Assembly (NCBI GenBank): GCA_043810345.1
Contig: JBDROF010000102.1
Coordinates: forward strand, 22,118 to 86,117
Source: Bacteroidota bacterium
GTDB lineage: Bacteria > Bacteroidota > Bacteroidia > Bacteroidales > FEN-979
Direction of reading: 5' to 3'
DNA length: 64,000 nt
Shown here: in pieces, positions 25,741-58,250 of the stretch
How positions within the stretch are numbered: position 1 is the stretch's first letter
Layout of the letters: every line of letters starts with the position of its first letter
Made by a program: the position numbers and the translations under genes
Notes under the pieces: model-generated
Database searches by the model: none
Seen by the model: only the letters and a program-made list of their open reading frames with translations
What the model was told of the DNA's origin: nothing

Positions 25741-26244
25741 ATGCGGAGAGAGATCGGAACATTCGAAGCATTTGAAAAGACGATGGAGAGGATGCGGGGC
25801 GATGGCATCCTGCTCGTTGCCGGCTATCCTCCCAATCCCATGACCATCGGCTGGGGTTCGTTGGGAACTGTTTGGAGCCGTCCTGTTTTCCAGGTACTGG
25901 TCAGACCAACCCGATATACATTCGGACTCATGGAGGATAGCCAGGCTTTCACGGTCAACGTGCTCTCCGATGACTATCAAAATGAGTTATTGCTTTGTGG
26001 AACCCGGTCGGGGCAGGATCTGGATAAAGCAGCCTCCTGCGGCTTCACCATGGTCAAGGGCGAAACCACTACGGCATTTTACATCCAGCAATCAACCATC
26101 CACTACGAATGCCGTATCATCCACAAACACCTTCTTGATGCGGCCACCCTGGATCCGGCCATTATTGAACGCTACTATCCCTTACGCGATTTTCACATGG
26201 TTTACTATGGGGAGATCGTGGGAGTCTTTAGGAATGAGGAATGA
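25741..26244 (+). CDS. flavin reductase-like (FMN-binding split-barrel) protein
   Basis: 167-aa ORF with ...NPMTIGWGSLGTVWSRPVF...FTVNV...CGTRSGQDLDK.... The last three codons and the stop lie in the heptamer array. Confidence 0.65.
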   Translation: MRREIGTFEAFEKTMERMRGDGILLVAGYPPNPMTIGWGSLGTVWSRPVFQVLVRPTRYTFGLMEDSQAFTVNVLSDDYQNELLLCGTRSGQDLDKAASCGFTMVKGETTTAFYIQQSTIHYECRIIHKHLLDAATLDPAIIERYYPLRDFHMVYYGEIVGVFRNEE

Positions 26245-26341
26245 GAAATGAGGAATGAGGAATGAGGAATGAAGGACGAGGGACGAAGGGCGAAGGATGA
26301 GGGACGTGAGACGTAAGACGTGAATTTCGAATTTCGAATTT
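26230..26341 (+). repeat. 112-nt tract of 16 strictly phased heptamers with drifting words
   Basis: The units read in one 7-nt phase as AGGAATG x2, AGAAATG, AGGAATG x3, AAGGACG, AGGGACG, AAGGGCG, AAGGATG, AGGGACG, TGAGACG, TAAGACG, TGAATTT, CGAATTT x2. The tract overlaps the stop codon at 26242-26244. Confidence 0.95.
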
Positions 26342-26392
26342 GGCTACGCCGAGCTTCGCGGAGTTTATCACGGTAATACGGGGCTCCGGTTC
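26341..26392 (+). repeat. non-tandem conserved core TGGCTACGCCGAGCTTCGC...GCTCCGGTTC, also present at 45055-45086
   Basis: The second copy reads TGGCTCCGCCGAGCTCCGCttcGCTCCGGTTC. It shares both ends and lacks about 22 internal nt. Both copies directly follow a CGAATTT/AATTCGT-type heptamer array. Confidence 0.75.
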
Positions 26393-26421
26393 AAGTTTCA
26401 AATTCTTAACTGCATATACCC

Positions 26422-26475
26422 TATATCTTATATCTTATATCCTATATCCTAACATCCTATCATCCTACATCTAAT
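26422..26475. repeat. tandem 7-8-mers (TATATCT x2, TATATCC x2, TAACATCC, TATCATCC, TACATC...)
   Basis: Read directly from the spacer upstream of tRNA-Val. Confidence 0.85.
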
Positions 26476-26499
26476 CTTCTGTTTTTTTAAAACTTTCCT

Positions 26500-26507
26500 T
26501 AAATTTG
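26500..26507 (+). promoter_or_regulatory. candidate -7 promoter box TAAATTTG for tRNA-Val
   Basis: It matches TAnnTTTG, lies 12 nt upstream of the mature tRNA 5' end, and is preceded by a T-rich stretch. Confidence 0.35.
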
Positions 26508-26518
26508 CACCCGTTTCC

Positions 26519-26593
26519 GGGATGTTAGCTCAGTTGGTTTAGAGCATCGCCTTGACAGGGCGGGGGTCATCGGTTCGAATCCGCTACATCCCA
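26519..26593 (+). tRNA. tRNA-Val (anticodon GAC)
   Basis: Hand fold: acceptor GGGATGT/ACATCCC, D-arm GCTC...GAGC, anticodon stem TCGCC/GGCGG with loop TTGACAG, and T-arm ATCGG-TTCGAAT-CCGCT with one T-C mismatch. No CCA is encoded. Confidence 0.85.
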
Positions 26594-26655
26594 CGGTTCG
26601 AAGTTAGAAGCCGGAGGTTAGAAGTACGAAAGGGAGGCTGGAAGTGCGAAACAGG
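26594..26655. repeat. three copies of an 11-mer GA(A/G)G(T/C)T(A/G)GAAG with short spacers
   Basis: The sequence reads cGAAGTTAGAAGccgGAGGTTAGAAGtacgaaagGGAGGCTGGAAGtgcgaaac, immediately 3' of tRNA-Val. Confidence 0.7.
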
Positions 26656-27315
26656 TTATTCCTTATTTTTCCTTTGACTAAACCGATACGCGACCCCTAC
26701 CAGAAAATTAACCGAGTTTGTTTTCTCATACCAGTGACTTTCCTGGCTGATATCGTCCTTTACAATCTGATATAAGCCAAGATTATACCGGACCTCAACA
26801 GATACCAGGAACCGTTGCCACAGTGGAATATTCATTCCAATACCTGTACTCAAGCCCCAATCAAACCTGTTAAAAAATTGAGTTGTTTCATAGGTTCTTC
26901 CAAGCTCTTTTGGCCATGCATTATTTACAGTGTAACCTCTTAAAAGATATCCTGAAAAAAGGCCTGTCTGAAAAAAGAAGTTAATCTTTTTCCCAAATGT
27001 CATTCTGCCGAATATCTGCGAGATGAGATAGTTATAATTTATACGGCTTATCTCACCATGACTGTTAATATCTCGCTCCCCTTTTCGTTCAAATGAAAAA
27101 TCAGCCCTGATGGAAAAAAACTTGCGGAAATTGTATTGGATAAACGGTCCGGCTGAAAACCCGATCCCCGGATTTAAATGATCACAGCTGCCATTTATAA
27201 AAATCACACTGGGGCCACCTTCTATACCAATGTCTAACCGGTTTGTCTGACAAAATAAATTCACGGGATCAAGAAGTAATACCAGAATCAATACGGAAAC
27301 TATCAGGGATTTCAT
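26656..27315 (-). CDS. outer-membrane beta-barrel (porin-like) protein
   Basis: About 219 aa from the ATG at 27315 (MKSLIVSVLILVLLL... signal). The body shows alternating aromatic/polar beta-strand patterns and a C-terminal ...NFLVGVAYRF typical of OMP barrels. The region looks AT-rich. Confidence 0.6.
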   Translation of the reverse strand: MKSLIVSVLILVLLLDPVNLFCQTNRLDIGIEGGPSVIFINGSCDHLNPGIGFSAGPFIQYNFRKFFSIRADFSFERKGERDINSHGEISRINYNYLISQIFGRMTFGKKINFFFQTGLFSGYLLRGYTVNNAWPKELGRTYETTQFFNRFDWGLSTGIGMNIPLWQRFLVSVEVRYNLGLYQIVKDDISQESHWYEKTNSVNFLVGVAYRFSQRKNKE

Positions 27316-27371
27316 TGGGAAAAGATTCCTTATTTTGTCATCAAATTTACATAATGTTTTTCTAAAATAAT

Positions 27372-29009
27372 CTACCATAGACAGTTTGGTGGTGGTGGCG
27401 GCATCGTTAATTGTGAATTTCTGTTTTCTGAGTAACCACAAACATTTCTTTCACGAAGCCGGATTTGATATGTCTCTCCGGGTTCATATTGCCAATAATC
27501 GGCTGCATATCTTGTACTTGCAATCTGTTCTATTGAACCCGGTCGCCATGTTTGCGTGATAAAATCAAAAAACTGGCAGGAGGTGGTTGTTTCATCCAGG
27601 ATGGGATTCAGAACATGAAAAAAACAACCGTTTCCCGATTGTTCTGCAAAAAAAAGATCGGGTGGCTGCGAAGGCACATCTCCAATCACCGTAATATAGC
27701 ATGTATCATATTCAACATGGCCCCAGGGAAATGACACGGTTAAATAAATGGGGTATGTTTGATTGGGTTCGACACCGCTTTTGACCCAAATCTTCATTTT
27801 ATTATGATGTCGATGGGGATTGCTATTGGGGAACTGGAATGATTCAAATTCAAAAGCCGGGGATGACCATTGGTAAACTGCATTAGGATAATAATTTGCA
27901 CTGATAATTTTATCGGAATTTGAAGAGGAGTTTGAAGTAATGCAAATTCGCGGACTCCTGTCGAAAATCTTGATTGGTGAGGCCAATTCTCCTTCTTTTT
28001 TATACACACGAATATACTCAATCTCCATATACTTGGGCAAAGTTCCAGGATCGACAGGTGTATTATGATCTCCAACTGCATTTGGGCCGGAACCAAACCG
28101 TAAACAAAAAGGTCCGCTGGGAGAAATATATTCAATACCCGGCATCCCACAGCTTGGCGCAGGTGTTCCCGGGATATCTATCTGATGAATCAGGGTATTG
28201 TTTACAAACCACTTAATGTAGTTATCACTCCATTCAAGGGCAAATACGGTCCAATAAGTGAATGCATGATTATGTAAATCAACGCAATGACTTTCTTCTA
28301 CAAGGTTATTCTCAGGATAGGTTTTCCAATGGTAAGTTACATCAAATATTGTTGAATTATCATGCGTTTCAAAAATATCAATCTCGTTACTATCAAGGAA
28401 TATGTTGTGATAAGGGGTAAGGAATTCATCAGGATCCTGCACACACCATAACCACATGGCGGCTCCCTGGCCATCTTCTGCATATATTTTAACTTTTGCT
28501 TCAACATATCCAGAACCATAGAAATAATAGCTCTTGAAATAATCGTTGAGAACACTAAGGGTTTTTATTTCCCCACATGAATAAGGGCAATCCGGGGGAA
28601 CCGGAACATTGGTATTCCAAATTTTTGCGTGGTAAATTGCAGCCTGAGGGGGCTGAGGCGGAAGGCCATCATTCAATGGTAAGGGTTCATACAGTTCATA
28701 AGTAACATTATCCGGATTCTTACGAAAGCTCCAGGTGCATTCCGAACCATCATCGCCGTTTATACTTATATTCCAATGTTGGTTTACGGTTGAGGGATAG
28801 AAATGTTCATTTAACAATAGATAATATCCTGGTTTCTGAGATGGATTATTAGGACATGGGTTAACATATGCCTGTATTTCCGCACATCCTATGTGACAAT
28901 AATCAGAAATATTTTCCTGAGCGTATCCCATTATGAGAGGCATCGTAAGAATGACAAGAAACAAGTTCCTGATTATACCATATTTAAATAAAGAAACATG
29001 TCGATTCAT
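27372..29009 (-). CDS. secreted GH16-like glycoside hydrolase domain protein with a C-terminal domain of unknown function
   Basis: The start is set at the ATG at 29009 (MNRHVSLFKYGIIRNLFLVILTMPLIMGYAQ signal). The region ...GAAMWLWCV...SNEIDIFETHD... matches the GH16 catalytic pattern E-x-D-x-x-E. Confidence 0.6.
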   Translation of the reverse strand: MNRHVSLFKYGIIRNLFLVILTMPLIMGYAQENISDYCHIGCAEIQAYVNPCPNNPSQKPGYYLLLNEHFYPSTVNQHWNISINGDDGSECTWSFRKNPDNVTYELYEPLPLNDGLPPQPPQAAIYHAKIWNTNVPVPPDCPYSCGEIKTLSVLNDYFKSYYFYGSGYVEAKVKIYAEDGQGAAMWLWCVQDPDEFLTPYHNIFLDSNEIDIFETHDNSTIFDVTYHWKTYPENNLVEESHCVDLHNHAFTYWTVFALEWSDNYIKWFVNNTLIHQIDIPGTPAPSCGMPGIEYISPSGPFCLRFGSGPNAVGDHNTPVDPGTLPKYMEIEYIRVYKKEGELASPIKIFDRSPRICITSNSSSNSDKIISANYYPNAVYQWSSPAFEFESFQFPNSNPHRHHNKMKIWVKSGVEPNQTYPIYLTVSFPWGHVEYDTCYITVIGDVPSQPPDLFFAEQSGNGCFFHVLNPILDETTTSCQFFDFITQTWRPGSIEQIASTRYAADYWQYEPGETYQIRLRERNVCGYSENRNSQLTMPPPPPNCLW

Positions 29010-29013
29010 AAAT

Positions 29014-30213
29014 TTATAAAGTATTATGTTTGACAATTATTTTTTCAACAAAAAAACCTTCAGACGTATGAACGATCAAATAATAAAATCCTTCAGGTAT
29101 CACTTCACTGTTAATAGTGATTCTTAAATCGATAACCTTATTCCCTGAATAGAGAACTTTTCCAAATATATCCACTAGCTGAATCGAGTTAATTGTTCCC
29201 GAAAAAATCTTAATTGTGATTTGGTCATCTGCCGGATTCGGAAAGATTGAGATAGATTTCTTCCCGAAATCGTGAACGATCACCTGAATTTCAAGACACG
29301 GATGATTGTAAAAGAAGTTTGCAAAATAGGTGCCAGGGAAAGGTATAATAGGTGAGCTTACAACCAATTCCCCTGTTTGCAGATCAGCGGCATTAAAGGT
29401 AGTGTCCCCGCCGATAAAGTAATAATATTCCTGAAAGGGATCCAGCGTGGCAGGATTGTTTTGAATAGAATTTGCAATAATATTTTGTGAAATCAAGGTA
29501 ACCTCCCCTGTGTTTGGATTGATCATAGCGAGTTTTCTTCCCAGGGTCATATTTCCGGCAAGACCGTACACAATGGAATCATAACAGTTGAATATAATAG
29601 GACCAAAATATTGACCAGATGGGAGATCAATAACAGATTCCGAGATGATCCCTCCGGATTGGAAATCAACGCCGATCAGCATATTATTTGTCGTCTCGAA
29701 ATAAAATATGTTATGATATGGATCCAAGGTCGTATACGTAAGGATTCGGTAACTTGGTGCAATCGGATTTCCGGATATTATATCCACAACACCTGTATTT
29801 GGATCCAGTGATGCCAACCAAACCGCCTGACCGGTATTGTCCCATGCCAGGCCATAGAGTGTTGAATCGACACAATTATATTCTAAGCCATAGAACATGG
29901 AAGTCTGATACTGTATCAATTGAACGGCTTCCAGAAGGTCGCCTGTCTGTAAATTAAATTTAAGCAATACGGAATCCAGGCATTGATAGAAAATATGATT
30001 TACAGGATCTATTGCCCTTCCATTATATCCGGAAGTGAAACTCACCGCATTCTGTGAAATGTTTGTAACGACTCCTGATTGGGCAGATATCTTTGCCAGA
30101 TAAAGACCAGTACCCGAAGAAACTACACTGATACCATAAATTACCGAATCAATCTGTGCCTGTGAAAACATGTAGCCCAGTGAAAAGATGCTAATTAGAA
30201 GAATTTTTTTCAT
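29014..30213 (-). CDS. T9SS-sorted secreted protein with internal propeller-like repeats
   Basis: 399-aa ORF with a signal peptide (MKKILLISIFSLGYMFSQAQ). The module ...LYGL...IDPNTGxVxxIS... recurs. The C-terminal roughly 80 aa (ISIFPNPADDQITIKI...YYLIVHTSEGFFVEKIIVK) resemble a type-A T9SS sorting domain. Confidence 0.7.
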   Translation of the reverse strand: MKKILLISIFSLGYMFSQAQIDSVIYGISVVSSGTGLYLAKISAQSGVVTNISQNAVSFTSGYNGRAIDPVNHIFYQCLDSVLLKFNLQTGDLLEAVQLIQYQTSMFYGLEYNCVDSTLYGLAWDNTGQAVWLASLDPNTGVVDIISGNPIAPSYRILTYTTLDPYHNIFYFETTNNMLIGVDFQSGGIISESVIDLPSGQYFGPIIFNCYDSIVYGLAGNMTLGRKLAMINPNTGEVTLISQNIIANSIQNNPATLDPFQEYYYFIGGDTTFNAADLQTGELVVSSPIIPFPGTYFANFFYNHPCLEIQVIVHDFGKKSISIFPNPADDQITIKIFSGTINSIQLVDIFGKVLYSGNKVIDLRITINSEVIPEGFYYLIVHTSEGFFVEKIIVKHNTL

Positions 30214-30610
30214 ATGAGAATTTTTGCAAAATAACTTCCCTTGAAAACAGATAAAGCTACATAAAATAGTTGGTTGATTTTCAGGTGTAACCCTTCTTCT
30301 AATATCTTTGCCCCGGCCACCTTCTTTCGTTAGTAATTCGTTTTATTGTAAAAAAATCGTTTGCTTACGATACCGAAAAAGGTTATTTTTCTCCTTCCCC
30401 TTCTATTCTGTAATGATTATTTTAAAGCAATAAGTATGCCAAAAATATAATTACCTAACATTCAATACATTAAAAATCAGATTGTCGGAATGAAAAGAAA
30501 AAGGTGTCAAAATATTTGAAACTGGTGTAAATAAATTGGACAGTGTAAAAAGGAAAAATACCAGGAGTGCAATAAAAAAACCGGCCCACAATTCATGAGC
30601 CGGCTTTCGT

Positions 30611-30650
30611 CCATGGCAATAAATGGCAATCCATGGCAATAAATGGCAAT
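30611..30650. repeat. tandem duplication of a 20-mer CCATGGCAATAAATGGCAAT (sub-period 10)
   Basis: Positions 30611-30630 and 30631-30650 are identical. The repeat lies 17 nt downstream of the response-regulator stop codon. Confidence 0.95.
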
Positions 30651-30666
30651 CAACCGATCTCTTCCC

Positions 30667-31062
30667 TCATCCTTCTCCCCGATCCATGTACTTCTTAATC
30701 AGCTCGATCATTTCATTAGCCCGGATAGGTTTAGCTATAAAATCCCAGCATCCGGCTGCGAAGGCCGCTGCCTGATCATGTTCGGTGGCGTAAGCGGTTT
30801 GCGCAATAACGGGAAGGGTTTGCCTGAATGACGTGATTTTTTCTGTAGCTTCCAGTCCATCCATCCCGGGCAGCCGGATATCCATCAGCACCACATCAAT
30901 TTCGGGATGCTGTATGCAAAGATTGATGGCATGTTCTCCCTCAAGTGCATGAAAAATAGTGGCCCTGGTCGGTTTCAAAACGACATCCAGGTAACTGAAA
31001 CTTATTTGATCGTCTTCCACTACCAGAATGGATTTCCCCTGCCAATTGATCTCCCCCCTCAT
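30667..31062 (-). CDS. receiver-only (CheY-like) response regulator, paralog 1
   Basis: 131-aa ORF with the REC residues present: VVEDD, the phospho-acceptor context VVLMDIRLPGMDG, AQTAYA and KPI. About 70% identical by eye to the ORF at 38653-39081. Confidence 0.85.
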   Translation of the reverse strand: MRGEINWQGKSILVVEDDQISFSYLDVVLKPTRATIFHALEGEHAINLCIQHPEIDVVLMDIRLPGMDGLEATEKITSFRQTLPVIAQTAYATEHDQAAAFAAGCWDFIAKPIRANEMIELIKKYMDRGEG

Positions 31063-31063
31063 A

Positions 31064-31687
31064 TTACTGTTTAAGGATGGAACGTGAGATGACTATTTTC
31101 AGAATTTCAGAAGTGCCTTCGTAAATCTGGGTAGCTTTTGCTTCCCGCATCAACCGCTCCACATGATACTCCTTTACATATCCGTACCCGCCCAGGATCT
31201 GAACCGCCTGGGTAGTTACTTCCATCGCGATATCGGCACAATATTGTTTGGCCATCGCACTGGCCGTAGTATAGGGCCGGTGCTGATCTTTCAGCCAGGC
31301 AGCTTTCAGGACAAGCAACTGACCGGTTTCAATCTTCACCGCCATATCAGCCAGCTTAAATGCGATGGCTTGGTGATTGCAGATTTCTGTCCCAAAAGCT
31401 TTCCGCTCTTTTGAATAGTGGAGAGCGCGTTCGTAAGCTCCCATCGCGATTCCTAACGCCTGGGCGGAAATTCCTATGCGGCCGAAATCGAGCTGTTTCA
31501 TCGCCAGCGAAAATCCAAAGCCTTCTTCCCCGATCCGGTTTTCTTTCGGGATTTTCACGTCGGTGAACATCACCGAATGGGTATCGGAACTTCTGAGCCC
31601 CATTTTGTTTTCATGAGGACCCAATATAATGCCCGGCGTATTCTTTTCAACGATAAAGCCATTGATCCCTTTGTGCTTCTTTGGAAC
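31064..31687 (-). pseudogene. 5'-truncated acyl-CoA dehydrogenase (C-terminal roughly 205 codons only)
   Basis: The translation ...KKHKGINGFIVEKNTPGIILGPHENKMGLRSSDTHSVMFTDVKIPKENRIGEEGFGF...QIYEGTSEILKIVISRSILKQ is the middle and C-terminal part of an ACAD. The frame stays open to about 31727, but homology stops near 31687 and no ATG or N-terminal domain is present. AT-rich foreign-looking DNA begins there. Confidence 0.8.
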
Positions 31688-38614: not shown

Positions 38615-38684
38615 TAGTTGGCAGTTGGCATTCACGTCTCACGTCCTACGTCTCACGTCTCACGTCCTACGTCTTCCGTCTCCC
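38615..38684 (-). repeat. 10 phased heptamers; minus-strand reading ...GTAGGAC GTGAGAC GTGAGAC GTAGGAC GTGAGAC GTGAATG CCAACTG CCAACTA
   Basis: The plus strand reads TAGTTGG CAGTTGG CATTCAC GTCTCAC GTCCTAC GTCTCAC GTCTCAC GTCCTAC GTCTTCC GTCTCCC. It uses the same words and order as 26300-26330 and overlaps the stop codon (38653-38655) and last codons of the response regulator. Confidence 0.95.
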
Positions 38685-42693: not shown

Positions 42694-42733
42694 GGTCATA
42701 AGGTCATGGAGTGATGAGGTGATGAGGTGATGA
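42694..42733 (-). repeat. five phased octamers; minus-strand reading CTTCATCA CCTCATCA CCTCATCA CTCCATGA CCTTATGA
   Basis: The plus strand reads GGTCATAA GGTCATGG AGTGATGA GGTGATGA GGTGATGA. It belongs to the same family as 49024-49055 and lies 10 nt downstream of the crotonase stop codon. Confidence 0.9.
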
Positions 42734-45037: not shown

Positions 45038-45093
45038 AATTCGTAATTCGTAATTGGCTCCGCCGAGCTCCGCTTCGCTCCGGTTCGTAATTA
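45038..45093 (+). repeat. AATTCGT heptamers flanking the conserved core TGGCTCCGCCGAGCTCCGC..GCTCCGGTTC
   Basis: The sequence reads AATTCGT AATTCGT AATTGGCTCCGCCGAGCTCCGCTTCGCTCCGGTTCGTAATTA. It lies between the convergent pyk and LytTR-regulator stop codons. The core is shared with 26341-26392. Confidence 0.85.
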
Positions 45094-45852
45094 TAATTTA
45101 AGTGTTTCCTTCAATACCTTATATCCCGATGTACTTGCTTTCAGACTGGTCCCATCCTGCATCAGTACAGCGTAGCTCTCTTTGTCGTAATATTCGAGTT
45201 TGTCCATGAAATCAACGTTGATGATAGTAGAGCGGTGAATCCTCACAAACATGGTGGGATCAAGATGCGTTTCAAAGTATTTCATGGTCTTTTCCTTCAG
45301 AAACCGCTCCTTTTCCGTGTGAATGGTAACATAGTCACCATCCGCTTCAAAGTACCTGATATCATGGACCGGGATCACGTAAACCTTATGTCTGACCTTC
45401 ACGGCAATCCGGGTGAGAAGATCCGGTTGCTCATTCACTACCCGAAGAATGTTTTTCACTGGTTTAACACTTCCTGAGCCAGTGGAAAGAACGCCCAGGG
45501 CTTTTACCATAGCCTGGTCGAACCGTTCTCTGGCATAGGGTTTCAGCAGGTAGTCGACCGCATTCATCTCAAATGCTTTGATGGCAAATTGATCAAACGC
45601 CGTACTGAAGATGATTACCGGTGGATCATCCAGCAACTCCAGCATCTCGAAACCGGTCAGTTTTGGCATCTGGATATCAAGGAAAATGAGATCGGGTTTC
45701 AGCTCCTGGATCGCTTTCAGTCCGGAGAATCCATCCGGATACTCCCCTGCCACTTCCAGCGTTGGGTATTCCATGAGGTAATCCCTGATGATCTGACGGG
45801 CAGGAGGTTCATCATCAATGATCAGGACTTTGTATTTTCGGTCATTTGTCAT
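45091..45852 (-). CDS. LytTR-family DNA-binding response regulator
   Basis: 253-aa ORF with an N-terminal REC domain (VLIIDDEPPAR...IFLDIQMPKLTG) and a C-terminal LytTR domain (...IRYFEADGDYVTIHT...). Confidence 0.9.
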   Translation of the reverse strand: MTNDRKYKVLIIDDEPPARQIIRDYLMEYPTLEVAGEYPDGFSGLKAIQELKPDLIFLDIQMPKLTGFEMLELLDDPPVIIFSTAFDQFAIKAFEMNAVDYLLKPYARERFDQAMVKALGVLSTGSGSVKPVKNILRVVNEQPDLLTRIAVKVRHKVYVIPVHDIRYFEADGDYVTIHTEKERFLKEKTMKYFETHLDPTMFVRIHRSTIINVDFMDKLEYYDKESYAVLMQDGTSLKASTSGYKVLKETLKL

Positions 45853-45868
45853 TGGCCATTAGTCATTA
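45841..45868 (-). repeat. four phased heptamers; minus-strand reading TAATGAC TAATGGC CAATGAC AAATGAC (AATGACC family), containing the regulator start codon
   Basis: The plus strand reads GTCATTT GTCATTG GCCATTA GTCATTA. The ATG at 45852-45850 is the ATG of the third unit. Confidence 0.9.
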
Positions 45869-45890
45869 AAGGCATTAAGGGAAATTATTT

Positions 45891-45911
45891 TGAATTCTGA
45901 ATTCTGAATTA
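45891..45911 (-). repeat. three heptamers TGAATTC TGAATTC TGAATTA (minus-strand reading TAATT CAGAATT CAGAATT CA)
   Basis: It overlaps the histidine-kinase stop codon (45909-45911). Same family and same gene-relative orientation as 50655-50682. Confidence 0.9.
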
Positions 45912-47959: not shown

Positions 47960-48958
47960 ATGAAGCTTTCATTTTACAAATATCACGGAACAGGCAATGA
48001 TTTCATTCTGGTCGATAACAGGGAAGGAACAATCGCACTATCGAAAAAGCAGATCGAACGTTTGTGTGATCGTCATTTTGGCGTCGGTGCCGACGGGCTG
48101 ATGTTACTTACTTCCGAAAAGGGGTATGATTTCGGCATGGTCTACTTCAATGCCGATGGGAACGAAAGCACCCTATGCGGGAACGGAGGCAGGTGCATAA
48201 CAGCCTTCGCACATATGCTGGGTATCATCGGTCAATCCGCCCGGTTTCTGGCCAGCGACGGCGAACATACTGCCAAAATCCTGAAAGACGAAGGGAATGT
48301 GAAATGGGTCCGGTTGAAAATGGCGGATGTAACTACCCCTCCCCTGGCCCCTCCCCAACAAGGGAGGGGAGTATCGGATATCGAAACAGATAAATCGTCC
48401 TTCGTCCTTCGTCCTTCGTCTTTCTTAATCAACACCGGCTCTCCCCATCTGGTTATCTTCGTTGAGAACGTGAGTGAAATAGATGCTGTATCAGAGGGCC
48501 GTAAACTCCGGGACGATCCCCAATTCGCCCCGGATGGAACCAATGTCGATTTCGTGGAGATCATGGAATCCAATCTCTTCGTCAGGACCTATGAACGAGG
48601 GGTGGAGAATGAGACACTCTCCTGTGGTACGGGGGTAACGGCGGCAGCAATGGCCTATGCCAGTTGGCAGTCCGCAGTCCGCAGTCCACAGTCCGCAGTC
48701 CTCAGTCCGCAGTCCGCAGTCCACAGTCCGCAGTCCGCAGTCCGCAGTCCAAAAATATCCAGGACCCAGCATCCAGGATCCAGCATCGAAATAGAAACAC
48801 TTGGCGGCAAACTGACCGTTTCCTTCCGGTTTGAGGATGGAACATTTACGGATATCTGGCTGAAGGGACCGGCGGAGCATGTTTTCAGCGGGGAGATCGA
48901 GGTTCGTGAAACGAGGGACGAGAGACGAGGGACGAGGGACGAAGAACTTAAGAGGTAA
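47960..48958 (+). CDS. dapF: diaminopimelate epimerase carrying in-frame repeat-derived insertions and a repeat-encoded tail
   Basis: The DapF core is recognisable: FYKYHGTGNDFILVD, NADGNESTLCGNGGRC, NTGSPHLVIFV, RTYERGVENETLSCGTG. The ORF is 332 aa versus 274 aa for E. coli DapF. The extra segments coincide with the repeats at 48336-48422, 48667-48784 and 48907-48958. Confidence 0.85.
   Translation: MKLSFYKYHGTGNDFILVDNREGTIALSKKQIERLCDRHFGVGADGLMLLTSEKGYDFGMVYFNADGNESTLCGNGGRCITAFAHMLGIIGQSARFLASDGEHTAKILKDEGNVKWVRLKMADVTTPPLAPPQQGRGVSDIETDKSSFVLRPSSFLINTGSPHLVIFVENVSEIDAVSEGRKLRDDPQFAPDGTNVDFVEIMESNLFVRTYERGVENETLSCGTGVTAAAMAYASWQSAVRSPQSAVLSPQSAVHSPQSAVRSPKISRTQHPGSSIEIETLGGKLTVSFRFEDGTFTDIWLKGPAEHVFSGEIEVRETRDERRGTRDEELKR
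48336..48370. repeat. GC-rich hairpin element (CCCCTCCC / GGGAGGGG family) inside dapF
   Basis: The sequence reads CCCCTCCCCtggCCCCTCCCcaacaaGGGAGGGGa. An 8-bp stem pairs 48348-48355 with 48362-48369, and the C-rich arm is duplicated at 48336-48344. It translates in frame as TPPLAPPQQGRG. Confidence 0.85.
48395..48422 (-). repeat. four phased heptamers TCGTCCT x3, TCGTCTT (reverse complement of the GGACGA words) inside dapF
   Basis: Read directly. It translates in frame as SSFVLRPSSF. Confidence 0.9.
48667..48750 (+). repeat. 12 phased heptamers (GCAGTCC with A/T variants), 84 nt, in frame inside dapF
   Basis: The units are GCAGTCC x3, ACAGTCC, GCAGTCC, TCAGTCC, GCAGTCC x2, ACAGTCC, GCAGTCC x3. 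The 21-nt super-period gives the peptide repeat QSAVRSP/QSAVLSP/QSAVHSP/QSAVRSP. Confidence 0.97.
48757..48784 (+). repeat. tandem 14-mer ATCCAGGA(C/T)CCAGC x2 inside dapF
   Basis: Read directly, immediately after the heptamer array. It is translated as ISRTQHPGSS. Confidence 0.85.
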
Positions 48959-48976
48959 GAGGTGAATCGTGAATAG
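48907..48976 (+). repeat. 10 phased heptamers TGAAACG AGGGACG AGAGACG AGGGACG AGGGACG AAGAACT TAAGAGG TAAGAGG TGAATCG TGAATAG
   Basis: It shows the same word progression as 26300-26341 and, in reverse, 38615-38684. It encodes the dapF tail (ETRDERRGTRDEELKR) and contains the dapF stop codon TAA (48956-48958). Confidence 0.95.
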
Positions 48977-49002: not shown

Positions 49003-49023
49003 GGACTGAGGACTGAGGACTCC
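49003..49023 (-). repeat. three heptamers GGACTGA GGACTGA GGACTCC (reverse complement of the 48667 array units)
   Basis: The reverse complement of GGACTGA is TCAGTCC, a unit variant present in the intragenic array. Confidence 0.9.
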
Positions 49024-49055
49024 CTTCATGACCTCATGACCTCATGACCTCATGA
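49024..49055 (+). repeat. four phased octamers CTTCATGA CCTCATGA CCTCATGA CCTCATGA
   Basis: Read directly. Same family and same gene-relative orientation as 42694-42733. Confidence 0.95.
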
Positions 49056-49072
49056 CCCTATAACTATTGACG

Positions 49073-49093
49073 AATGACCAATGACCAATGATC
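49073..49093 (+). repeat. three heptamers AATGACC AATGACC AATGATC containing the GNAT start codon
   Basis: The ATG at 49088 is the ATG of the third unit. The two upstream unit ATGs open 5-codon out-of-frame mini-ORFs (MTNDQ*, MTNDP*). Confidence 0.9.
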
Positions 49094-49629: not shown

Positions 49630-50694
49630 ATGCACCTCTTTTTTCGAATCACCATCCTGCGTATCCTTCCATTCCTTCTCCTGGCAGCTCTGCTTGTGGG
49701 TACAGAGCGGCTCTACTTCCGGATCCACACGGCTGTAATCGACCTGGGAGATGCCGATCATGCATGGTTAACTATTCCTACCGGGGCAGGGTTCAACCAG
49801 GTGAAAGACAGTCTGTACCATCATGATTACGTCAGCAAAAAGAAATTCTTTGAAAACTACGTTGAACTGGGGAAGTACGACCATTATTTCAAGCCTGGCA
49901 GGTACAGGCTCCGGAACCGGATGAATGCCCGGGAACTGGTTGATATGCTGATCATGGGATTCCAGACCCCGGTGAATGTTTCATTCCACAACATCCGGAA
50001 AAAAGAGGAGCTTGCGGGCAGGATCGCCCGTCAGATCGAGGCCGATAGCCTGAGCCTGCTGACGGTTCTTTCTGACAACACCATCCTTTCTCAATACGAC
50101 GTAACTCCTCTGACGGTGTTCACCTTGACCATCCCCAACACCTATGAGATGTGGTGGAATTCCACAGCAGAAGACTTTATGGCACGAATGGCAACAGAAT
50201 CCAGGAAGTTCTGGAAAGGGGCCCGGACACGGAAGGCCGATTCCATCGGTTTGACCATTCCTGAAGTGGTTACCCTGGCCTCCATCATTGAGAAGGAGAC
50301 CACGAAGAATGATGAAAAGCCTTTGATTGCCGGTGTCTATATCAACCGCCTTCAAAAAAAATGGCCCCTTCAGGCCGATCCTACCCTGATCTATGCATGG
50401 GATGATTTCACAATCAACCGGGTCCTGAACCGACATAAAAAGATAAATTCTCCCTATAACACCTATAAAAACAGAGGCCTTCCTCCTGGACCCATCTGTC
50501 TCCCCTCAATCACCTCGATCGATGCGGTGTTGAACTACCGGGATCATAAGAATATGTACTTTTGTGCGAAGGAGGATTTCTCAGGATACCACGTTTTCTC
50601 CTCCACCATGAGTGAGCATAACAGAAATGCAAGGCGGTATCAGGAGGCGTTTAATAGAATTAAGAATTCAGAATTCAGAATTACAAATATATGA
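49630..50694 (+). CDS. mltG: endolytic murein transglycosylase MltG (YceG-like)
   Basis: 354-aa ORF with an N-terminal TM anchor and the ...VTLASIIEKETTKNDEKPLIAGVYINRL...LQADPTLIYA...SPYNTYKNRGLPPGPICLPS... YceG signature. The C-terminal ...IKNSEFRITNI is encoded by a heptamer array. Confidence 0.88.
   Translation: MHLFFRITILRILPFLLLAALLVGTERLYFRIHTAVIDLGDADHAWLTIPTGAGFNQVKDSLYHHDYVSKKKFFENYVELGKYDHYFKPGRYRLRNRMNARELVDMLIMGFQTPVNVSFHNIRKKEELAGRIARQIEADSLSLLTVLSDNTILSQYDVTPLTVFTLTIPNTYEMWWNSTAEDFMARMATESRKFWKGARTRKADSIGLTIPEVVTLASIIEKETTKNDEKPLIAGVYINRLQKKWPLQADPTLIYAWDDFTINRVLNRHKKINSPYNTYKNRGLPPGPICLPSITSIDAVLNYRDHKNMYFCAKEDFSGYHVFSSTMSEHNRNARRYQEAFNRIKNSEFRITNI
50655..50682 (+). repeat. 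four phased heptamers TAGAATT AAGAATT CAGAATT CAGAATT
   Basis: Read directly, within the last 13 codons of mltG. Confidence 0.9.
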
Positions 50695-51728: not shown

Positions 51729-53282
51729 ATGAAAATACTCCCTGTTGAAAAGATCCGGGAAGCAGACGCGTACACCATCGAACACGAGCCGATTACCGAC
51801 ATCGACCTGATGGAGCGGGCTGCCGGTAAATGTTTTGACTGGCTGTACCAGCATATACCCGCCACCCGCTCCGTTAAGGTATTCGCCGGAACAGGAAATA
51901 ATGGGGGTGACGGATTAGCCATCGCCAGAATGTTGGCTGAAAAAGGATACCTTGTAGAAGTAGTTCTTGCCGGTGATCCGGATACCCTTTCACCCAGTTG
52001 TAAACTAAATTACGACCGGTTTCTTGGGATCAAGGGTGGGAAAAGCAGATTTACCGTCCATTCAGCTCGGGGAAATTCAACTAAAGAGGCATCTCCCCTC
52101 CCTTTATGGGGAGGGGTCGGGGGAGGGGTCGTAATCATCGACGCCCTGTTCGGCAGTGGCCTGACGCGTCCCATCACAGGATTCCATGCAGATCTGATCC
52201 GGGCTGTCAACCAGTTGAAAGCACTCGTAGTCTCCATTGATGTCCCTTCCGGACTCTTCATCGATCAAACGGTAAAAGCGGAGAGCGATCCGGCTATCAT
52301 CCAAGCGGACTTCACGCTTACCTTTGCCCCGCCAAAACTGGCCTTCTTTTTTCCTGAAAATGACCCCTATATCGGGGAGTGGGTGCTGCTCGATATCGGA
52401 CTTTCAGAAGAGTACCTGAAACAGACGGAGGTGAAAAATTTCATGGTTACCGTGGCCAACGTCAAACCGCTTTTACGTAAACGTAATAAATTTGCTCACA
52501 AAGGAAATTTTGGCCACGCCCTGCTGATCTGTGGCGGAAAAGGGAAGATGGGAGCAGCCGTGCTGGCGGCAAGAGCCTGCCTGCAATCGGGGCCCGGACT
52601 GGTTACTGTGAGGGTTCCCCGTTCGGGAGTGGAGATCATGCAAACGGCCGTTCCGGAAGCCATGCTGGCGATCGATCCGGATGAAGAATACTACTCCGAG
52701 CTTCCCAAACTGGATGGATACACGGCCGTTGGGATCGGCCCTGGAATCGGTCTGGAGAAGTCCACAGGAAATGCTTTAAAGCATCTGATTCAGGAAGGTA
52801 TCCCGATGGTCATCGATGCCGATGCCATTACGATCCTGGGTGAAAATAAAACCTGGCTCTGTTTTCTTCCGCCAGGCAGCATCCTTACACCTCACCCCAA
52901 AGAGTTCGAAAGGTTAGCAGGCAAAACATCCAACGATTTCGAACGGAACCAGGTGCAACGGGAACTCTCTTTCAAATACTCCTGTTACATCGTATTGAAA
53001 GGAGCTTATACCGCCATCACCACACCCGACGGCAGATGCTTCTTCAACACCACCGGGAATCCCGGAATGGCTACCGGTGGAAGTGGCGATGTGCTGACCG
53101 GGATCATTACGGGATTGGTTGCCCAGCACTACCTTCCACTGGATGCCTGTTTGCTGGGAGTATACCTCCATGGACTAGCCGGTGACCTGGCTGCGGAAAT
53201 TACCGGCCACGAGGCATTGACTGCCGGAAAGATCATCCACCACCTTGGAAACGCATTTCTTTCGCTGTATGGAGAATTATGA
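51729..53282 (+). CDS. nnr: bifunctional NAD(P)H-hydrate repair enzyme Nnr (epimerase + ADP-dependent dehydratase), with an in-frame hairpin-element insertion
   Basis: 517-aa ORF with an N-terminal YjeF_N domain (...VFAGTGNNGGDGLAIARML...DALFGSGL...) and a C-terminal carbohydrate-kinase-like domain (...HKGNFGHALLICGG...GNPGMATGGSGDVLTG...). Confidence 0.88.
   Translation: MKILPVEKIREADAYTIEHEPITDIDLMERAAGKCFDWLYQHIPATRSVKVFAGTGNNGGDGLAIARMLAEKGYLVEVVLAGDPDTLSPSCKLNYDRFLGIKGGKSRFTVHSARGNSTKEASPLPLWGGVGGGVVIIDALFGSGLTRPITGFHADLIRAVNQLKALVVSIDVPSGLFIDQTVKAESDPAIIQADFTLTFAPPKLAFFFPENDPYIGEWVLLDIGLSEEYLKQTEVKNFMVTVANVKPLLRKRNKFAHKGNFGHALLICGGKGKMGAAVLAARACLQSGPGLVTVRVPRSGVEIMQTAVPEAMLAIDPDEEYYSELPKLDGYTAVGIGPGIGLEKSTGNALKHLIQEGIPMVIDADAITILGENKTWLCFLPPGSILTPHPKEFERLAGKTSNDFERNQVQRELSFKYSCYIVLKGAYTAITTPDGRCFFNTTGNPGMATGGSGDVLTGIITGLVAQHYLPLDACLLGVYLHGLAGDLAAEITGHEALTAGKIIHHLGNAFLSLYGEL
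52095..52130. repeat. GC-rich hairpin element (CCCCTCCC / GGGAGGGG family) inside nnr
   Basis: The sequence reads CCCCTCCCtttatgGGGAGGGGtcGGGGGAGGGGTC. An 8-bp stem pairs 52095-52102 with 52109-52116, and the G-rich arm is duplicated. It translates in frame as ..SPLPLWGGVGGGV... Confidence 0.85.
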
Positions 53283-55599: not shown

Positions 55600-55692
55600 C
55601 CTGCTTCTCTTTCTACGCGGTGCAAAGGTAACGGATACGGCCTGTGATGAAGTATAGCTGGTGAAAGAGTTTTCAAAAAGAAATGAACAGGC

Positions 55693-55735
55693 GGACAAGG
55701 GACGAAGACTATTCATTCCTGCATTCCTGCATTGA
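55693..55735. repeat. GGACAAG GGACGAA heptamers followed by octamers TTCATTCC TGCATTCC TGCATTGA (reverse complement of the AGGAATG words)
   Basis: Read directly, between the flippase stop (55745) and the parE start. The reverse complement of CATTCCT is AGGAATG, the unit at 26230. Confidence 0.85.
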
Positions 55736-55744
55736 GGCATTATC

Positions 55745-57010
55745 TTAATTCCCCAATGACCTCCTCACCTCCGTCACCAACATCCGGATTTCCTCCTTCC
55801 GTATAAGAAAGTCTTTGGCCTTGACACCGGATAAGACAACAAAAGCAATCAACTGATACACAGTGGCGGATGTGTATGAACAGGATGCGGCAATCCCGGC
55901 GCCGATGATTCCGTAAACAGGGATCAGCCAGAGGCTGAGGGCGATGGTGAAGATCAGACCGATTCCGGAAGCAATGGCGCTGTGCATCGGTTTTCCCATC
56001 CCGGAAAAAAAGGCGCTGAGGAGAATGGAAAAAGAGAGTGAGATGATCCCGACCGTCAGGCTGATGATTACCGGTTTGATTCCACTGAATTCAGGCCCGA
56101 AAACGAACACAAAGAAACTGGCCGGCAACATCAGGATCAATCCTACGATCAGGGTGGAAACCAGCACTCCTACCTTGCTGAAAACGAGGGTTACCTTCAC
56201 TGCATAGTCCCATCTCTTTTCATTGCTGATCCTTGAAAGCTGTACCATTGAAATGCTGCGCGGGATGATCCAGACTGCTTCCGAAAGCTGAACACCGGTA
56301 GAATAGACGCCCAGTGCGGCTTTATTGATCATATGTTCGATAAAGTAATAACTCAACCGGTAATTGAAGAGCTGGAAGATATTGGCTGTTTGTGCCCAGG
56401 CACCAAAGGCAAGGATTTCACGGATAACCCGTTTCATGCCACTCAGCTCGCCCTTCTTCAACCGCGTCGTGATCAAGGCAACACTTGCCAGAAACATGAC
56501 GATGTAAGAAATATACATGGCATAAACATAGACCATTACCTCTCTGTTGGAAGTAAACAGGTAGAATGCCAGAAGGGTGGCGATCAGGGAGGTGATCTGG
56601 GCCACGGTAAGAACATTGATGGCCTTGATACGTTCCTGGCCAAGAAGGATCATGATATTCACGGTAAACAGGGAATGGAGTGTGGAAAGGATCATCACAT
56701 GCACGAAATAACCTTCCGGAATGGAATCAGTGAAATATAGCAACCCTGCACAGGCAATGGAGGCAATCACTCCCCAAATGTAGGAGGGGATAAAAAGTTT
56801 TAACAGAGGGGTCCTGGGGACAAGATATACCAGTGCCGCACCCCCGATAAAGTTATTCACCATTTGGACTATGGTGACAGCCAGGATGATCAGGCTGATC
56901 ACCCCCACCTTCTCGGCACCGAGATACCGGGCATTCATCACCACGATGACAAGCGTAAATATGGCCGCCAGGAACCGGGTGAAGATCGTGCCCATTATTT
57001 TTTTAAACAT
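55745..57010 (-). CDS. polysaccharide/oligosaccharide flippase (Wzx/MOP superfamily)
   Basis: 421-aa polytopic ORF with about 12 TM segments, adjacent to and overlapping a GT4 gene. Confidence 0.7.
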
Positions 57011-58190
57011 CGTCCATGACTTGGGTATAAATTGCTGAGAGTTTATCCCCTACTGATTGAGGAGAGTAATAGTCCTGGACACTGGCCCGGATAGCCTCCC
57101 GGTCGAAGAAGTTACCCTGATCAAGCATATGGTCTATTGCCTCTACCAGTGATTGTTTGTCATTCGCCGGAATCAATATGCCGTTGCTGGGATTGATTAC
57201 TTCAGGAGCAATTCCAACCGCGGTAGAGACCACCGGAGTGCCGCAGGCCAGGCTCTCGATCAGTACGGTGCCAAAGGTCTCATACCGACTCGAAAGTACT
57301 GTAAAATCAGCCTGTTCATAGAGATCTGTCAGATCTTTCTGTGCTTTCAGTCCTGCAAAGAAAACTGTTTTTCCAAGTAGACCGAGATCCATAGCCGCCT
57401 GCTGCATCCGCTCCAGGTCGGGCCCTTCGCCTGCCAGCAGACACCGGAAATCTGACCTTCGCCTGGACAGCTCAGTAACCGCTTCAAGTAATCCACTGAT
57501 ATTCTTAGCCCGGTCATCAAAACAGGAGACATGTAAAAACTGTTTCTGGGAACCAGGTCTCTCCTGATGCCTGTCAACCTGGAGGGAAGTTTTAACCACA
57601 TTGGGGACCACAAAATAGTGATGATTGAATAGCCGGCAGGAGAGCAATGCCTGCTTCAGCACCTCTGAAACGGCAATCACCGCCGCCGCCTTCCCAACCA
57701 CATGCCGGGTGATCAGTTTCCGGAACCACCCCCGGTATGTGCCATTCTCCGGAAAGTATCTTGACCAGTGTTCCGAAATCACATGAGGAACACGGTACCG
57801 GCGACTCAGGTAATGGCCCATCAATGCTGTGCGTGTGAGAACATGCGAGTGTATGACATCAGGAATAAAATCACCTGCCACCTCTAATCCTCTCTGATGG
57901 GCCCGGTAGAAGCTTGAAAGGTTCAACGCCTGGTAGATCCCGGGAAGGACTGTCTCCGGAATCTTGTAATAGACCCGGACAGCCGTTACACCGTTTTCCT
58001 CTGCATAATCGATCTCAAATTCACTCGGGCAACCGGGATCAGGATGTGCATAAAGAACCACCACATGATGTTGGGTTGCAAGCGCTTCCGCTTGCCGCTG
58101 GATAAACAATCCCGGCATCGGATCATACCGGTTCGGGTACCAGCGGGGAAGAAACAGGATATTCAGCTTTTGGTCAGATGCAGAGGACAT
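57003..58190 (-). CDS. GT4-family glycosyltransferase
   Basis: 395-aa ORF with ...ILFLPRWYPNRYDPMPGLFI... and the C-terminal ...ETFGTVLIESLACGTPVVSTAVGIAPEVI... E-x7-E region. Confidence 0.8.
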   Translation of the reverse strand: MSSASDQKLNILFLPRWYPNRYDPMPGLFIQRQAEALATQHHVVVLYAHPDPGCPSEFEIDYAEENGVTAVRVYYKIPETVLPGIYQALNLSSFYRAHQRGLEVAGDFIPDVIHSHVLTRTALMGHYLSRRYRVPHVISEHWSRYFPENGTYRGWFRKLITRHVVGKAAAVIAVSEVLKQALLSCRLFNHHYFVVPNVVKTSLQVDRHQERPGSQKQFLHVSCFDDRAKNISGLLEAVTELSRRRSDFRCLLAGEGPDLERMQQAAMDLGLLGKTVFFAGLKAQKDLTDLYEQADFTVLSSRYETFGTVLIESLACGTPVVSTAVGIAPEVINPSNGILIPANDKQSLVEAIDHMLDQGNFFDREAIRASVQDYYSPQSVGDKLSAIYTQVMDDV

Positions 58191-58194
58191 GAAG

Positions 58195-58250
58195 CGAAAT
58201 TACGAATTACGAATGACGAATTACGAATGACGAATTATCCGGCATCCGGC
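58195..58250. repeat. eight phased heptamers CGAAATT ACGAATT ACGAATG ACGAATT ACGAATG ACGAATT ATCCGGC ATCCGGC
   Basis: Read directly in a single 7-nt phase, between the nadR-like stop (58260) and the GT4 start (58190). The minus-strand reading is AATTCGT, as at 45038. Confidence 0.95.

Follow-up and report, generated by a model that had tools for sequence, protein, structure and literature searches.

The DNA analysed here, referred to below as the window, is a stretch of 64,000 nucleotides from a Bacteroidota bacterium of the Bacteroidales lineage FEN-979 (assembly GCA_043810345.1, contig JBDROF010000102.1, positions 22,118 to 86,117 of the forward strand), and it carries, mostly at gene boundaries, a series of short tandem arrays built from units of 7 or 8 bases. 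Such arrays characterise an entire clade of uncultured Bacteroidota, and they belong to the known class of STRR-like heptanucleotide simple-sequence repeats rather than constituting a new system. What is new lies in the details, namely deep retention at orthologous junctions, 4-base cores within the units, in-frame arrays in DapF and ComEC, AATGACC units on start codons, and a 7-base difference between strains. With a confidence slightly better than even, we favour the explanation that the arrays are slippage-driven simple-sequence repeats retained where they are tolerated, and that reading-frame selection yields much of their apparent grammar.

Tandem Repeats Finder (TRF), whose use the initial annotation of this DNA had proposed, returned 63 rows for the window, a large share of them of period 7, and confirmed the heptamer and octamer arrays as enriched. 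In a period scan set against dinucleotide-preserving shuffles, 17 period-7 arrays were observed where 0.1 would be expected and 5 period-8 arrays where 0.3 would be expected, with periods 4-6 and 9-13 at background level. All period-7 arrays except one fall within 26.2-58.3 kb, octamer and decamer arrays are present besides the heptamers (21435, 30613), and arrays are almost lacking in the ribosomal-protein/rpoBC block, both in the window and in its relatives. The initial annotation, made from the letters of the DNA alone, had maintained that the arrays are not independent microsatellites and share a vocabulary, and the comparison of units agrees with it: about eight unit families recur inside the 64 kb, identical-unit pairs between arrays number 4 against 0.18 expected, and pairs at most one mismatch apart number 12 against 3.96 ± 1.94 (P = 0.0015). 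The sequences it quoted were all recovered, at 26300, 38615 (-), 48907, 42711, 49026, 45887 (-), 50656, 45038, 58198 (-), 45852 (-) and 49088. Its example of preserved phase also stands, in that AGGAATG ×6, AAGGACG/AGGGACG ×5, TGAGACG TAAGACG and TGAATTT CGAATTT CGAATTT follow one another at 26230..26341 on the forward strand, 16 consecutive units that share one 7-base phase through four changes of word; this array provides the stop codon of a flavin reductase gene (26242-26244).

The DapF protein of the window is identical to P0001, a protein annotated from a Bacteroidota metagenome-assembled genome (MAG), and syntenic relatives could be compared at graded distances, comprising L031 and L039 (83-89% nucleotide identity), L043-L045 (89% DapF identity), L046-L048 (64%), L017 (63%) and L049-L054 (62%), in addition to L055-L057, taken around a peptidase gene, and L058-L064, taken around a K+ transporter gene. 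In 201 kb of clade DNA, period-7 runs of at least three identical 4-mers occur 92 times per 100 kb, compared with 16 in 352 kb of other Bacteroidota loci, and period-8 runs defined in the same way occur 40 times, compared with 6; periods 6 and 9 show no enrichment in the clade relative to those loci. Local heptamer clusters with units of their own were also encountered in unrelated dapF outgroups, as CCTAACA ×7 and AACGAAT in Kordia (L006 4699-4968, L008 4977-5191), and likewise in an Omnitrophota MAG (L019), and heptamer-rich spacers therefore recur sporadically outside the clade.

Across 62-64% DapF identity, related unit families persist at orthologous junctions while the unit mix turns over. 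The spacer between the stop codon of an AAA_28 protein gene and the start of a glycosyltransferase gene is filled in the window by AATTACG/AATGACG ×5.7 and then ATCCGGC ×2.4 (58198..58253, reverse strand), and the same succession of AATTACG and ATCCGGC is found in L046, L049, L058 and L063. In the convergent spacer between pyk and a LytTR regulator gene, the window carries AATTCGT ×2.6 (45038..45055, given no strand); AATTCGT adjoins the regulator stop codon in L043 and L046, and in L043 an additional gene lies between the array and pyk. The orthologues thus place this array at the 3' end of the response regulator, and its earlier assignment to pyk has to be given up. In the spacer that runs from the stop codon of the enoyl-CoA hydratase gene to the start of the 3-hydroxyacyl-CoA dehydrogenase gene, the window has the octamer CTCATCAC ×2.9 (42711..42733, reverse strand), and L046 and L057 have an xxxGACG array followed by CATSAC octamers. 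AATGACN units overlap the start codon of the LytTR response regulator (45850-45852) in the window (×4, 45841..45868, reverse strand, encoding MTND), in L039/L043 and in L017, and CCAATGA units lie on the start codon of a GNAT acetyltransferase gene (49088-49090) in the window, as TGACCAA ×3.4 of the AATGACC family (49068..49091, forward strand), and in L017. AATTNNN marks the end of mltG/YceG in the window, where AGAATTM ×4 occupies the last codons just before an ATGA stop/start overlap with a DUF2279 gene (50656..50683, forward strand), and recurs as AATTGAN in L046 and L017. Shorter arrays related to that of 26230..26341 stand at the orthologous site in L055 and L056. Beyond the range covered by the initial annotation, an octamer array, AGCGAAAT ×4 in gene sense, lies in the tRNA-Gly/tRNA-Tyr spacer of a tRNA operon (21435..21467, reverse strand), a site also occupied in L055-L057; the units there are TAGCGAAA in L056 (14220) and AAATGGTG/AAATAGTG in L055 (14264) and L057 (14213), and the array would be part of the tRNA precursor transcript.

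At 89% DapF identity, the window and L043 have common sites with different unit numbers and mixes. At the second insertion site in dapF, the dominant unit is CCGCAGT in the window and TGGCAGT in L043, the tail of dapF is likewise different, and an array at the 3' end of the histidine kinase gene (TCAGAAT ×3.4, overlapping the stop codon, 45887..45910, reverse strand) is present in the window and absent in L039 and L043. The comparison of unit numbers that had been suggested revealed a single 7-base event among near-identical strains and differences at orthologous sites among lineages.

Units are commonly composed of a conserved 4-base core (CAGT, GACG or AATT) and three variable bases. At dapF site 2, CAGT is invariant in four lineages and the triplet is TGG, CCG, CCA, CCT, AAT, GGG, CAC or GAC; elsewhere the core is AATT at the mltG end and GACG in the purine-rich family. 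Unit types present in at least two copies all keep CAGT, and half of the singleton types break it, numbers that are too small for significance. Protein-level selection behind the CAGT core was considered and appears unlikely, each unit being read in all three frames. In several arrays, super-periods of 14 and 21 bases outscore period 7 in TRF, which fits duplication of two- or three-unit blocks, and first units often match native coding sequence (TAT GCC AGT before the dapF site 2 array, ATGACCAA at the GNAT and regulator start codons), which fits seeding from local sequence.

Among spacers of at least 30 bases in the clade loci, an array of 7- or 8-mers is present in 24 of 75 co-directional and 5 of 9 convergent spacers and in 0 of 16 divergent ones, a contrast that is suggestive only, since orthologous spacers are not independent and the divergent figure represents only about 5-6 independent sites. 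Given the empty divergent spacers, each intergenic array lies downstream of some gene's stop codon. Orientation was scored on curated independent sites, with orthologues used to settle ambiguous cases, and the earlier claim that every family keeps one orientation relative to its gene holds in part: five of eight families are consistent, with xxxGACG in gene sense at 5/5 independent gene 3' ends and AGGAATG, AATGACC, CAGAATT and the CATSAC octamer consistent at 2/2 sites each, but AATTCGT, NNNCAGT and ATCCGGC are seen in both orientations, xxxGACG is antisense inside dapF, and in a permutation test P is 0.23 over all sites and 0.044 over intergenic sites alone. Reassigning the 45038 array to the regulator reverses its orientation relative to the 58198 array. 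A replication-strand cause of orientation was ruled out, as six families lie on both strands while cumulative GC skew falls almost monotonically.

These observations bear on the main rival explanation, a possible one to which we give limited credence, according to which the arrays are functional cis-elements in the transcript, punctuating gene junctions and bound, one heptamer per domain, by a single-strand-binding protein of the oligonucleotide-binding (OB)-fold, cold-shock or S1 type. Following a stop codon, such arrays would close all three frames; preceding a start codon, units containing ATGA (AATGACC, TCATGACC, AGGAATG-A) would offer a stop and a start in every frame as well as an unstructured landing site, in a phylum that rarely uses Shine-Dalgarno pairing. 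A transcript role would account for the related families kept at orthologous junctions at 62-64% DapF identity, for cores conserved beside three variable bases, for arrays in 29/84 spacers containing a gene 3' end versus 0/16 divergent ones, for the gene-sense xxxGACG arrays, for the position of (AATGACC)n on start codons at both of its sites, which has a parallel with a reporter effect at Nostoc recO, and for the near-zero folding energy of most arrays. Indeed, deep retention, conserved cores, avoidance of divergent spacers and the cross-phylum AATGACC parallel fit it better than pure slippage, and an equivalent proposal has been made (MacGregor 2015, PMC4679880). It is weakened by the fast change of unit identity and number between close relatives, with one array missing in one relative, by the three families in both orientations and the permutation values, by the presence of the same families in coding loops, where such a function is unlikely, by the nearly array-free ribosomal-protein/rpoBC block, by the few independent divergent sites, and by the lack of a known binding protein.

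Word order is a further feature that any explanation has to accommodate. The progression AGGGACG, TGAGACG, TAAGACG, TGAAT, reported earlier for three window loci, is present at all three, and a variant recurs in L043 and L063, but it is partly a reading-frame effect, because the stop-free units AGGGACG/AAGGACG are read as the tail of an open reading frame (ORF) until units starting with TGA, TAA or TAG appear, and because, 7 being coprime with 3, it takes at most 21 bases for a stop-bearing unit to close every frame. Some order is left over after this effect. At three non-orthologous sites an ACTGNNN array comes after an xxxGACG array; the non-orthologous spacers downstream from the enoyl-CoA hydratase gene and from dapF both contain TAAGAGGTAA and then CTTCATSACCTCATSA; and at 26340 and 45054 GGCTMCGCCGAGCT comes after an array whose end is AATT. 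A further composite similarity between non-orthologous spacers is that of GACGTGAAT junctions at three loci. The dapF-GNAT spacer, which in the window measures 129 bases and holds four arrays, is missing from L017 and L046, in which dapF and the GNAT gene overlap. None of the composite junction patterns had an exact match in the fetched loci, so that any cassette-like similarity between loci is confined to this genome and to short junctions.

The composite similarity between non-orthologous spacers and the dapF-GNAT spacer missing from two relatives, together with small hairpin elements in or next to arrays at different sites in each lineage, could be taken to indicate active directional copying, in which composite cassettes are pasted at gene 3' ends by template switching or gene conversion, or in which tiny mobile elements carry or target heptamers, as has reportedly been proposed for the small dispersed repeats of Nostoc. 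We regard this explanation as improbable, for neither a transposase, a reverse transcriptase nor another candidate enzyme was linked to arrays in the loci examined, target-site duplications and defined element ends were not seen, many arrays are explicable by local expansion of native sequence, and the shared junctions are few and short (9-16 bases).

Most arrays lie at gene boundaries, as the initial annotation had stated, but four are in frame within dapF (48395, 48658, 48759 and the tail at 48911), and a fifth, beyond the range first covered, lies in frame in comEC (GGGCAGT ×4.3 in gene sense, peptide GQWAVG, 1952..1981, reverse strand). The dapF ORF (47960-48958, forward strand) holds TCGTCCT ×4.3 at insertion site 1 (48395..48424, peptide SSFVLRPSSF), which is the reverse complement of the xxxGACG family; NNNCAGT ×13, mostly CCGCAGT, and then ATCCAGS ×4 at insertion site 2 (48658..48787, peptide SWQSAVRSPQSAV...); and ACGAGGG ×4.6, TAAGAGG ×2 and TGAATCG TGAATAG at its end (48911..48976), which encode the last 17 residues and the stop codon (48956-48958) and have related arrays at the same site in L043/L031 and L049. 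Alignment with outgroup DapF reveals two loop insertions and a C-terminal extension. In an AlphaFold2 model, the confidence score pLDDT exceeds 90 in the core, falls below 50 at residues 131-146 and 242-272 and is about 54 in the C-terminal tail; the array-encoded segments lack secondary structure and are modelled as disordered. All of about 20 clade DapF proteins (at least 56% identity) have hypervariable inserts at the two common sites and an intact reading frame despite the intragenic arrays, and their lengths are 270-332 residues versus about 262 in outgroups. The inserts carry 7-residue-periodic peptides (SPQSAVR, TSHVSQL, SSFVLRPSSF), that is, heptamer DNA read in three frames.

Two further elements were noticed. 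A small hairpin element, CTCCCCAACAAGGGAGGGGAG, encoding PPQQGRG, lies in frame in dapF (48351-48371, forward strand) and in nnr, the NAD(P)H-hydrate repair gene (52093-52131, reverse strand), where it is followed by GGGGAGGGGTCG ×2, and L017 8147-8183 is a further location; it looks mobile because protein P0010 has its peptide motif at the other dapF insertion site. The other, AATGTCATTGCGAGAAACGAAGTGACGAAGCAAAC, is about 35 bases long and encodes NVIARNEVTKQT; it sits between two heptamer arrays at dapF site 2 in L043 (10770-10805) and L031, is found in several lineages (proteins P0002, P0005, P0014 and P0018) and is absent from the window.

Between strains, the arrays do slip, yet they are far more stable than contingency loci. 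Nine comparisons of strain pairs 99.7-99.99% identical, over 2-21 kb each, contained zero indels, and single-nucleotide polymorphisms between near-identical strains show no concentration in arrays. In four further comparisons, the sole array indel was one 7-base unit, (TCCTTCG)9 versus (TCCTTCG)8 between strains 99.6% identical, which concerns the longest and purest array and changes the predicted C-terminal tail of a nicotinamide mononucleotide (NMN) transporter from 242 to 232 residues. A 28-base deletion in the gene of the transketolase C-terminal subunit in L062 (12843-12871) relative to L058 lies outside arrays, in an assembly with coverage 6, and may be an assembly error. That the arrays are contingency loci, at which gain and loss of units toggles genes because 7 is not a multiple of 3, would agree with their position in or across ORF ends and with the altered transporter tail; given the scarcity of indels, the housekeeping rather than surface or virulence nature of the genes concerned (dapF, mltG, comEC) and the frame kept in all aligned clade DapF proteins, phase variation is very improbable. 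An assembly or scaffolding artefact, which the initial annotation had named as a possible refutation and to which breaks or N runs next to arrays in some assemblies might point (the L043 spacer; JACKQG01 fragments), is effectively refuted. Arrays are found at the same junctions in independent metagenome assemblies of relatives, made from different samples and with different assemblers, 23 contigs from independent metagenomes carry an identical P0005, inserts encoded by arrays included, L046-L048 agree, as do L058-L061, and the differences between lineages at orthologous sites are evolutionarily coherent, with intragenic arrays keeping dapF in frame.

According to the slippage explanation, arrays would grow, shrink and change units by slipped-strand mispairing and unequal exchange, with gain and loss probably in whole units or in blocks of two or three. 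As their positions suggest, they would persist only where extra sequence is tolerated, such as spacers after stop codons, the first or last codons of genes and disordered surface loops. Reading-frame selection would then sort the units: because stop-bearing units close all frames within 21 bases, stop-free ones can be absorbed into ORF tails and loops, and units bearing a stop codon or ATG would come to mark the gene boundary. The common vocabulary and recurring order might arise from occasional copying between loci, through ectopic conversion or template switching, and the cores from preferential amplification of units that keep them; no dedicated machinery would be required, and none is visible. 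Period-specific enrichment, whole-unit polymorphism, turnover, block duplication and tolerant locations are directly supported by the data. The 7-base phase that compound arrays keep where the word changes, the lack of consistent RNA structure and of surplus promoter-like or terminator-like sites, and the published surveys of Mrazek 2007 and Rehm 2015 also count in favour of slippage.

Several observations nevertheless speak against slippage as a sufficient cause. It leaves unexplained, on its own, why units recur at unrelated loci and why xxxGACG is followed by ACTGNNN at three non-orthologous sites. Related families remain at orthologous junctions of genomes so far apart (62-64% DapF identity) that neutral sequence between genes would be expected to be random, and four lineages keep the CAGT core unchanged beside three bases that vary. 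The arrays are far stabler than classical slippage-prone repeats, with one indel over about 14 comparisons of near-identical strains, and their distribution over 0/16 divergent versus 29/84 3'-end-containing spacers would also be explained by a transcript-linked role. A more ambitious proposal would combine these points into a conserved gene-junction grammar read in the transcript, running from the stop codon through stop-free and then stop-bearing xxxGACG units, ACTGNNN, CATSAC octamers and AATGACC with the next start. A protein binding single-stranded nucleic acid in a 7-base register would recognise the 4-base cores and control termination-reinitiation, mRNA processing or stability, and the sharing with cyanobacterial STRRs would reflect a common, possibly horizontally transferred system; we consider this rather unlikely.

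Other classes of element were also considered. A search of Rfam with the window returned tRNAs only, and folding of all arrays in both orientations gave mostly near-zero energies and no consistent z-score, with just two good folds, those of the self-complementary octamer TCATGACC and of the dapF array in antisense. Promoter-like and terminator-like sites were neither enriched nor co-located with arrays in a consensus scan, whose consensus does not extend to Bacteroidota-type promoters. Structured non-coding RNA and intrinsic terminators were ruled out by these Rfam, folding and terminator results, and a clustered regularly interspaced short palindromic repeat (CRISPR) array, which would have repeats of about 24-48 bases parted by unique spacers, by the contiguous units of 7-10 bases. 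Tandem TAACTGA was not found in eight clade loci (two units, at most two mismatches allowed), which contain just two isolated near-matches. The xxxGACG arrays at 26273 and 48911 have three GGG runs each, and other families are not G-rich.

By Pfam, the genes neighbouring the window arrays encode a flavin reductase, two response regulators, a LytTR-type regulator and kinase, enoyl-CoA hydratase, pyruvate kinase, DapF, a GNAT acetyltransferase, YceG/MltG and an AAA_28 protein, which upholds the gene identities first given except that 45091-45852 is a LytTR response regulator gene and the supposed nadR-like gene encodes the AAA_28 protein. The best protein matches of the window are to Bacteroidota or Bacteroidales MAGs, and its gene content includes Por_Secre_tail, typical of Bacteroidota. 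Among the remaining arrays, TATATCC ×5 runs into ATCCTAAC octamers upstream of tRNA-Val (26415..26471, forward strand). At 38616..38682 on the reverse strand, GGAGACG GAAGACG TAGGACG TGAGACG..., then TGAATGC and then CCAACTG ×2 (gene sense) overlap the stop codon of a response regulator (38653-38655) and encode its tail, GETEDVGRET. The dapF-GNAT spacer holds on the forward strand GGACTGA ×2.7 (49003..49021), the reverse complement of the NNNCAGT family (TCAGTCC), and the octamer TCATGACC ×4 (49026..49057), with its self-complementary TCATGA. A further octamer, CAGGAATG ×2.5, lies at the junction of the 3' end of a polysaccharide-synthesis gene and the 5' end of parE (55714..55733, reverse strand).

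Near the arrays, a GC-rich element, GGCWCCGCCGAGCTCMGCTTCGCTYCRG, directly follows an AATT-ending array or motif at 45056-45087, at 26342-26365 and at about 6300-6340 of L049, two of these places being non-orthologous, and repeats that end in AATT may be its preferred target. Decamer arrays with the common core ATGGCAAT occur in the window (30613-30650), in L017 (3601-3635, 4417-4509 and 15674-15707), where they reach 9.3 copies, and in L049 (6368-6393), and thus represent a third unit length with a clade-wide vocabulary. A 20-base direct repeat, AAAATACAGATAAATCCGTG ×1.9, which may be a binding site of the LytTR regulator, occupies the divergent spacer that separates dapF from the liaF-kinase-LytTR operon (window 47884-47926) and is conserved in the close relative L039 (2115-2157). 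Between tRNA-Val (26519-26594) and the regulator gene at 38653-39081 lies a low-GC island (26600-38430, 26.6-38.4 kb; 35-42% GC versus about 49%) with GH130 and glycosyltransferase genes, an IstB remnant (38101-38427) and a truncated acyl-CoA dehydrogenase gene (31064-31624). It also holds, at 30667-31062, a second paralogue of the response-regulator gene, 71% identical in nucleotide sequence to 38653-39081; this island is absent in L055-L057 and has no heptamer array.

Heptanucleotide families have been known since 1990, and their function and 7-base length are a long-standing question. The clade provides many independently assembled genomes at graded distances, from strain pairs with 99.6-99.99% nucleotide identity to lineages with 89% and 62-64% DapF identity, in which the same junctions can be compared and the birth, turnover and retention of arrays measured. 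It also supplies concrete cases, including arrays that give stop and start codons, arrays in essential enzymes, a 4-base core and one start-codon unit found in two phyla. If the arrays are functional, they represent a new layer of gene-boundary signalling; if not, they offer a clean natural system for unit-length-specific slippage and for the tolerance of proteins to in-frame repeat insertions.

The closest precedent, as the initial annotation had proposed, is the STRR class of heptanucleotide simple-sequence repeats, likewise consisting of tandem 7-base units in several dispersed families over many, mostly intergenic loci. STRR heptanucleotides were reportedly described from heterocystous cyanobacteria by Mazel in 1990, with units that are said to read CCCCAGT (STRR1), TTGGTCA (STRR2) and CAACAGT (STRR3). 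AATGACC is, as had been suspected, a rotation of the reverse complement of TTGGTCA, the reported STRR2 unit, and TTGGTCA is itself the TRF consensus of the orthologous array in L039. On the units so given, CCGCAGT is one mismatch from STRR1, and both it and the CAGT-bearing STRR units fit NNNCAGT. STRRs are also said, after Vioque in 1997, to lie inside the cyanobacterial RNase P RNA gene, a likeness in being intragenic, whereas the window arrays lie in frame inside protein-coding housekeeping genes. The hosts differ, being heterocystous cyanobacteria in one case and a Bacteroidota clade in the other, xxxGACG, AATTNNN, the CATSAC octamer and the decamer ATGGCAATNN are additional families here, most families have no STRR counterpart, and retention at orthologous junctions over deep divergence is documented here. 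A further likeness, that of short repeats tolerated in frame in surface loops, connects the arrays with the palindromic elements that Ogata in 2000 is said to have found inserted in frame in Rickettsia protein genes and with the small dispersed repeats of Nostoc attributed to Elhai in 2008; the window arrays, however, are tandem and non-palindromic, and neither element ends nor target-site duplications were seen.

In Nostoc 7120, arrays of GGGGAYT (PMC4692102) and GACYAAT (10.1101/2022.06.06.494920) provide an indirect match to STRR1 and STRR2 only, and window CCGCAGT is one base off the complement of Nostoc GGGGACT. (GACYAAT)8 overlaps the recO start codon of this organism, and its deletion alters reporter output (bioRxiv 10.1101/2022.06.06.494920), so that the AATGACC arrays of the window have a counterpart with the same unit, position on the start codon and orientation. 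Contrary to the belief that such repeats had not been described in Bacteroidota, heptamers including TAACTGA have been reported from Beggiatoaceae, Cyanobacteria and five Bacteroidetes, mostly forward and upstream of start codons, with a proposed role in translation for which cold-shock, S1 or CsrA-type proteins are candidates (MacGregor 2015, PMC4679880). The likeness extends to intergenic arrays, overlap with stop codons, closure of all frames, a few arrays in ORF ends and the admixture of other heptamers, but TAACTGA is absent here, many families take the place of one dominant unit, most arrays lie at gene 3' ends, and the forward orientation at start codons is matched by the AATGACC family only, at two independent sites. 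In the survey of Mrazek 2007, as summarised in PMC4679880, no long simple-sequence repeats of non-pathogens were more frequent than heptanucleotides, a prevalence put down to polymerase slippage. With the repeats of that survey (units of 5-11 bases), the arrays share heptamer dominance, above-chance length, a free-living non-pathogenic host, a mostly non-coding location and, in the single event of (TCCTTCG)9 versus (TCCTTCG)8, length change by whole units. The survey, in that summary, describes neither a conserved order of arrays nor composite junctions common to several sites nor orthologous retention over deep divergence, and units that are not multiples of three were expected to avoid coding regions, whereas five intragenic arrays are in frame here. 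Finally, heptamers of Xanthomonas (GGGAATC) and Nostoc (GGGGAYT) form heterogeneous arrays with a core and variable positions (GGGANTN), and two Xanthomonas species share the intergenic sites at which they lie, with variation in length and sequence and with no link to pathogenicity found (Rehm 2015, PMC4692102). Those arrays are G-rich and quadruplex-capable, a property on which that work centred, while here only xxxGACG is G-rich and seldom has four GGG runs; sites are kept between species in both systems, and the genome divergence is much larger here.

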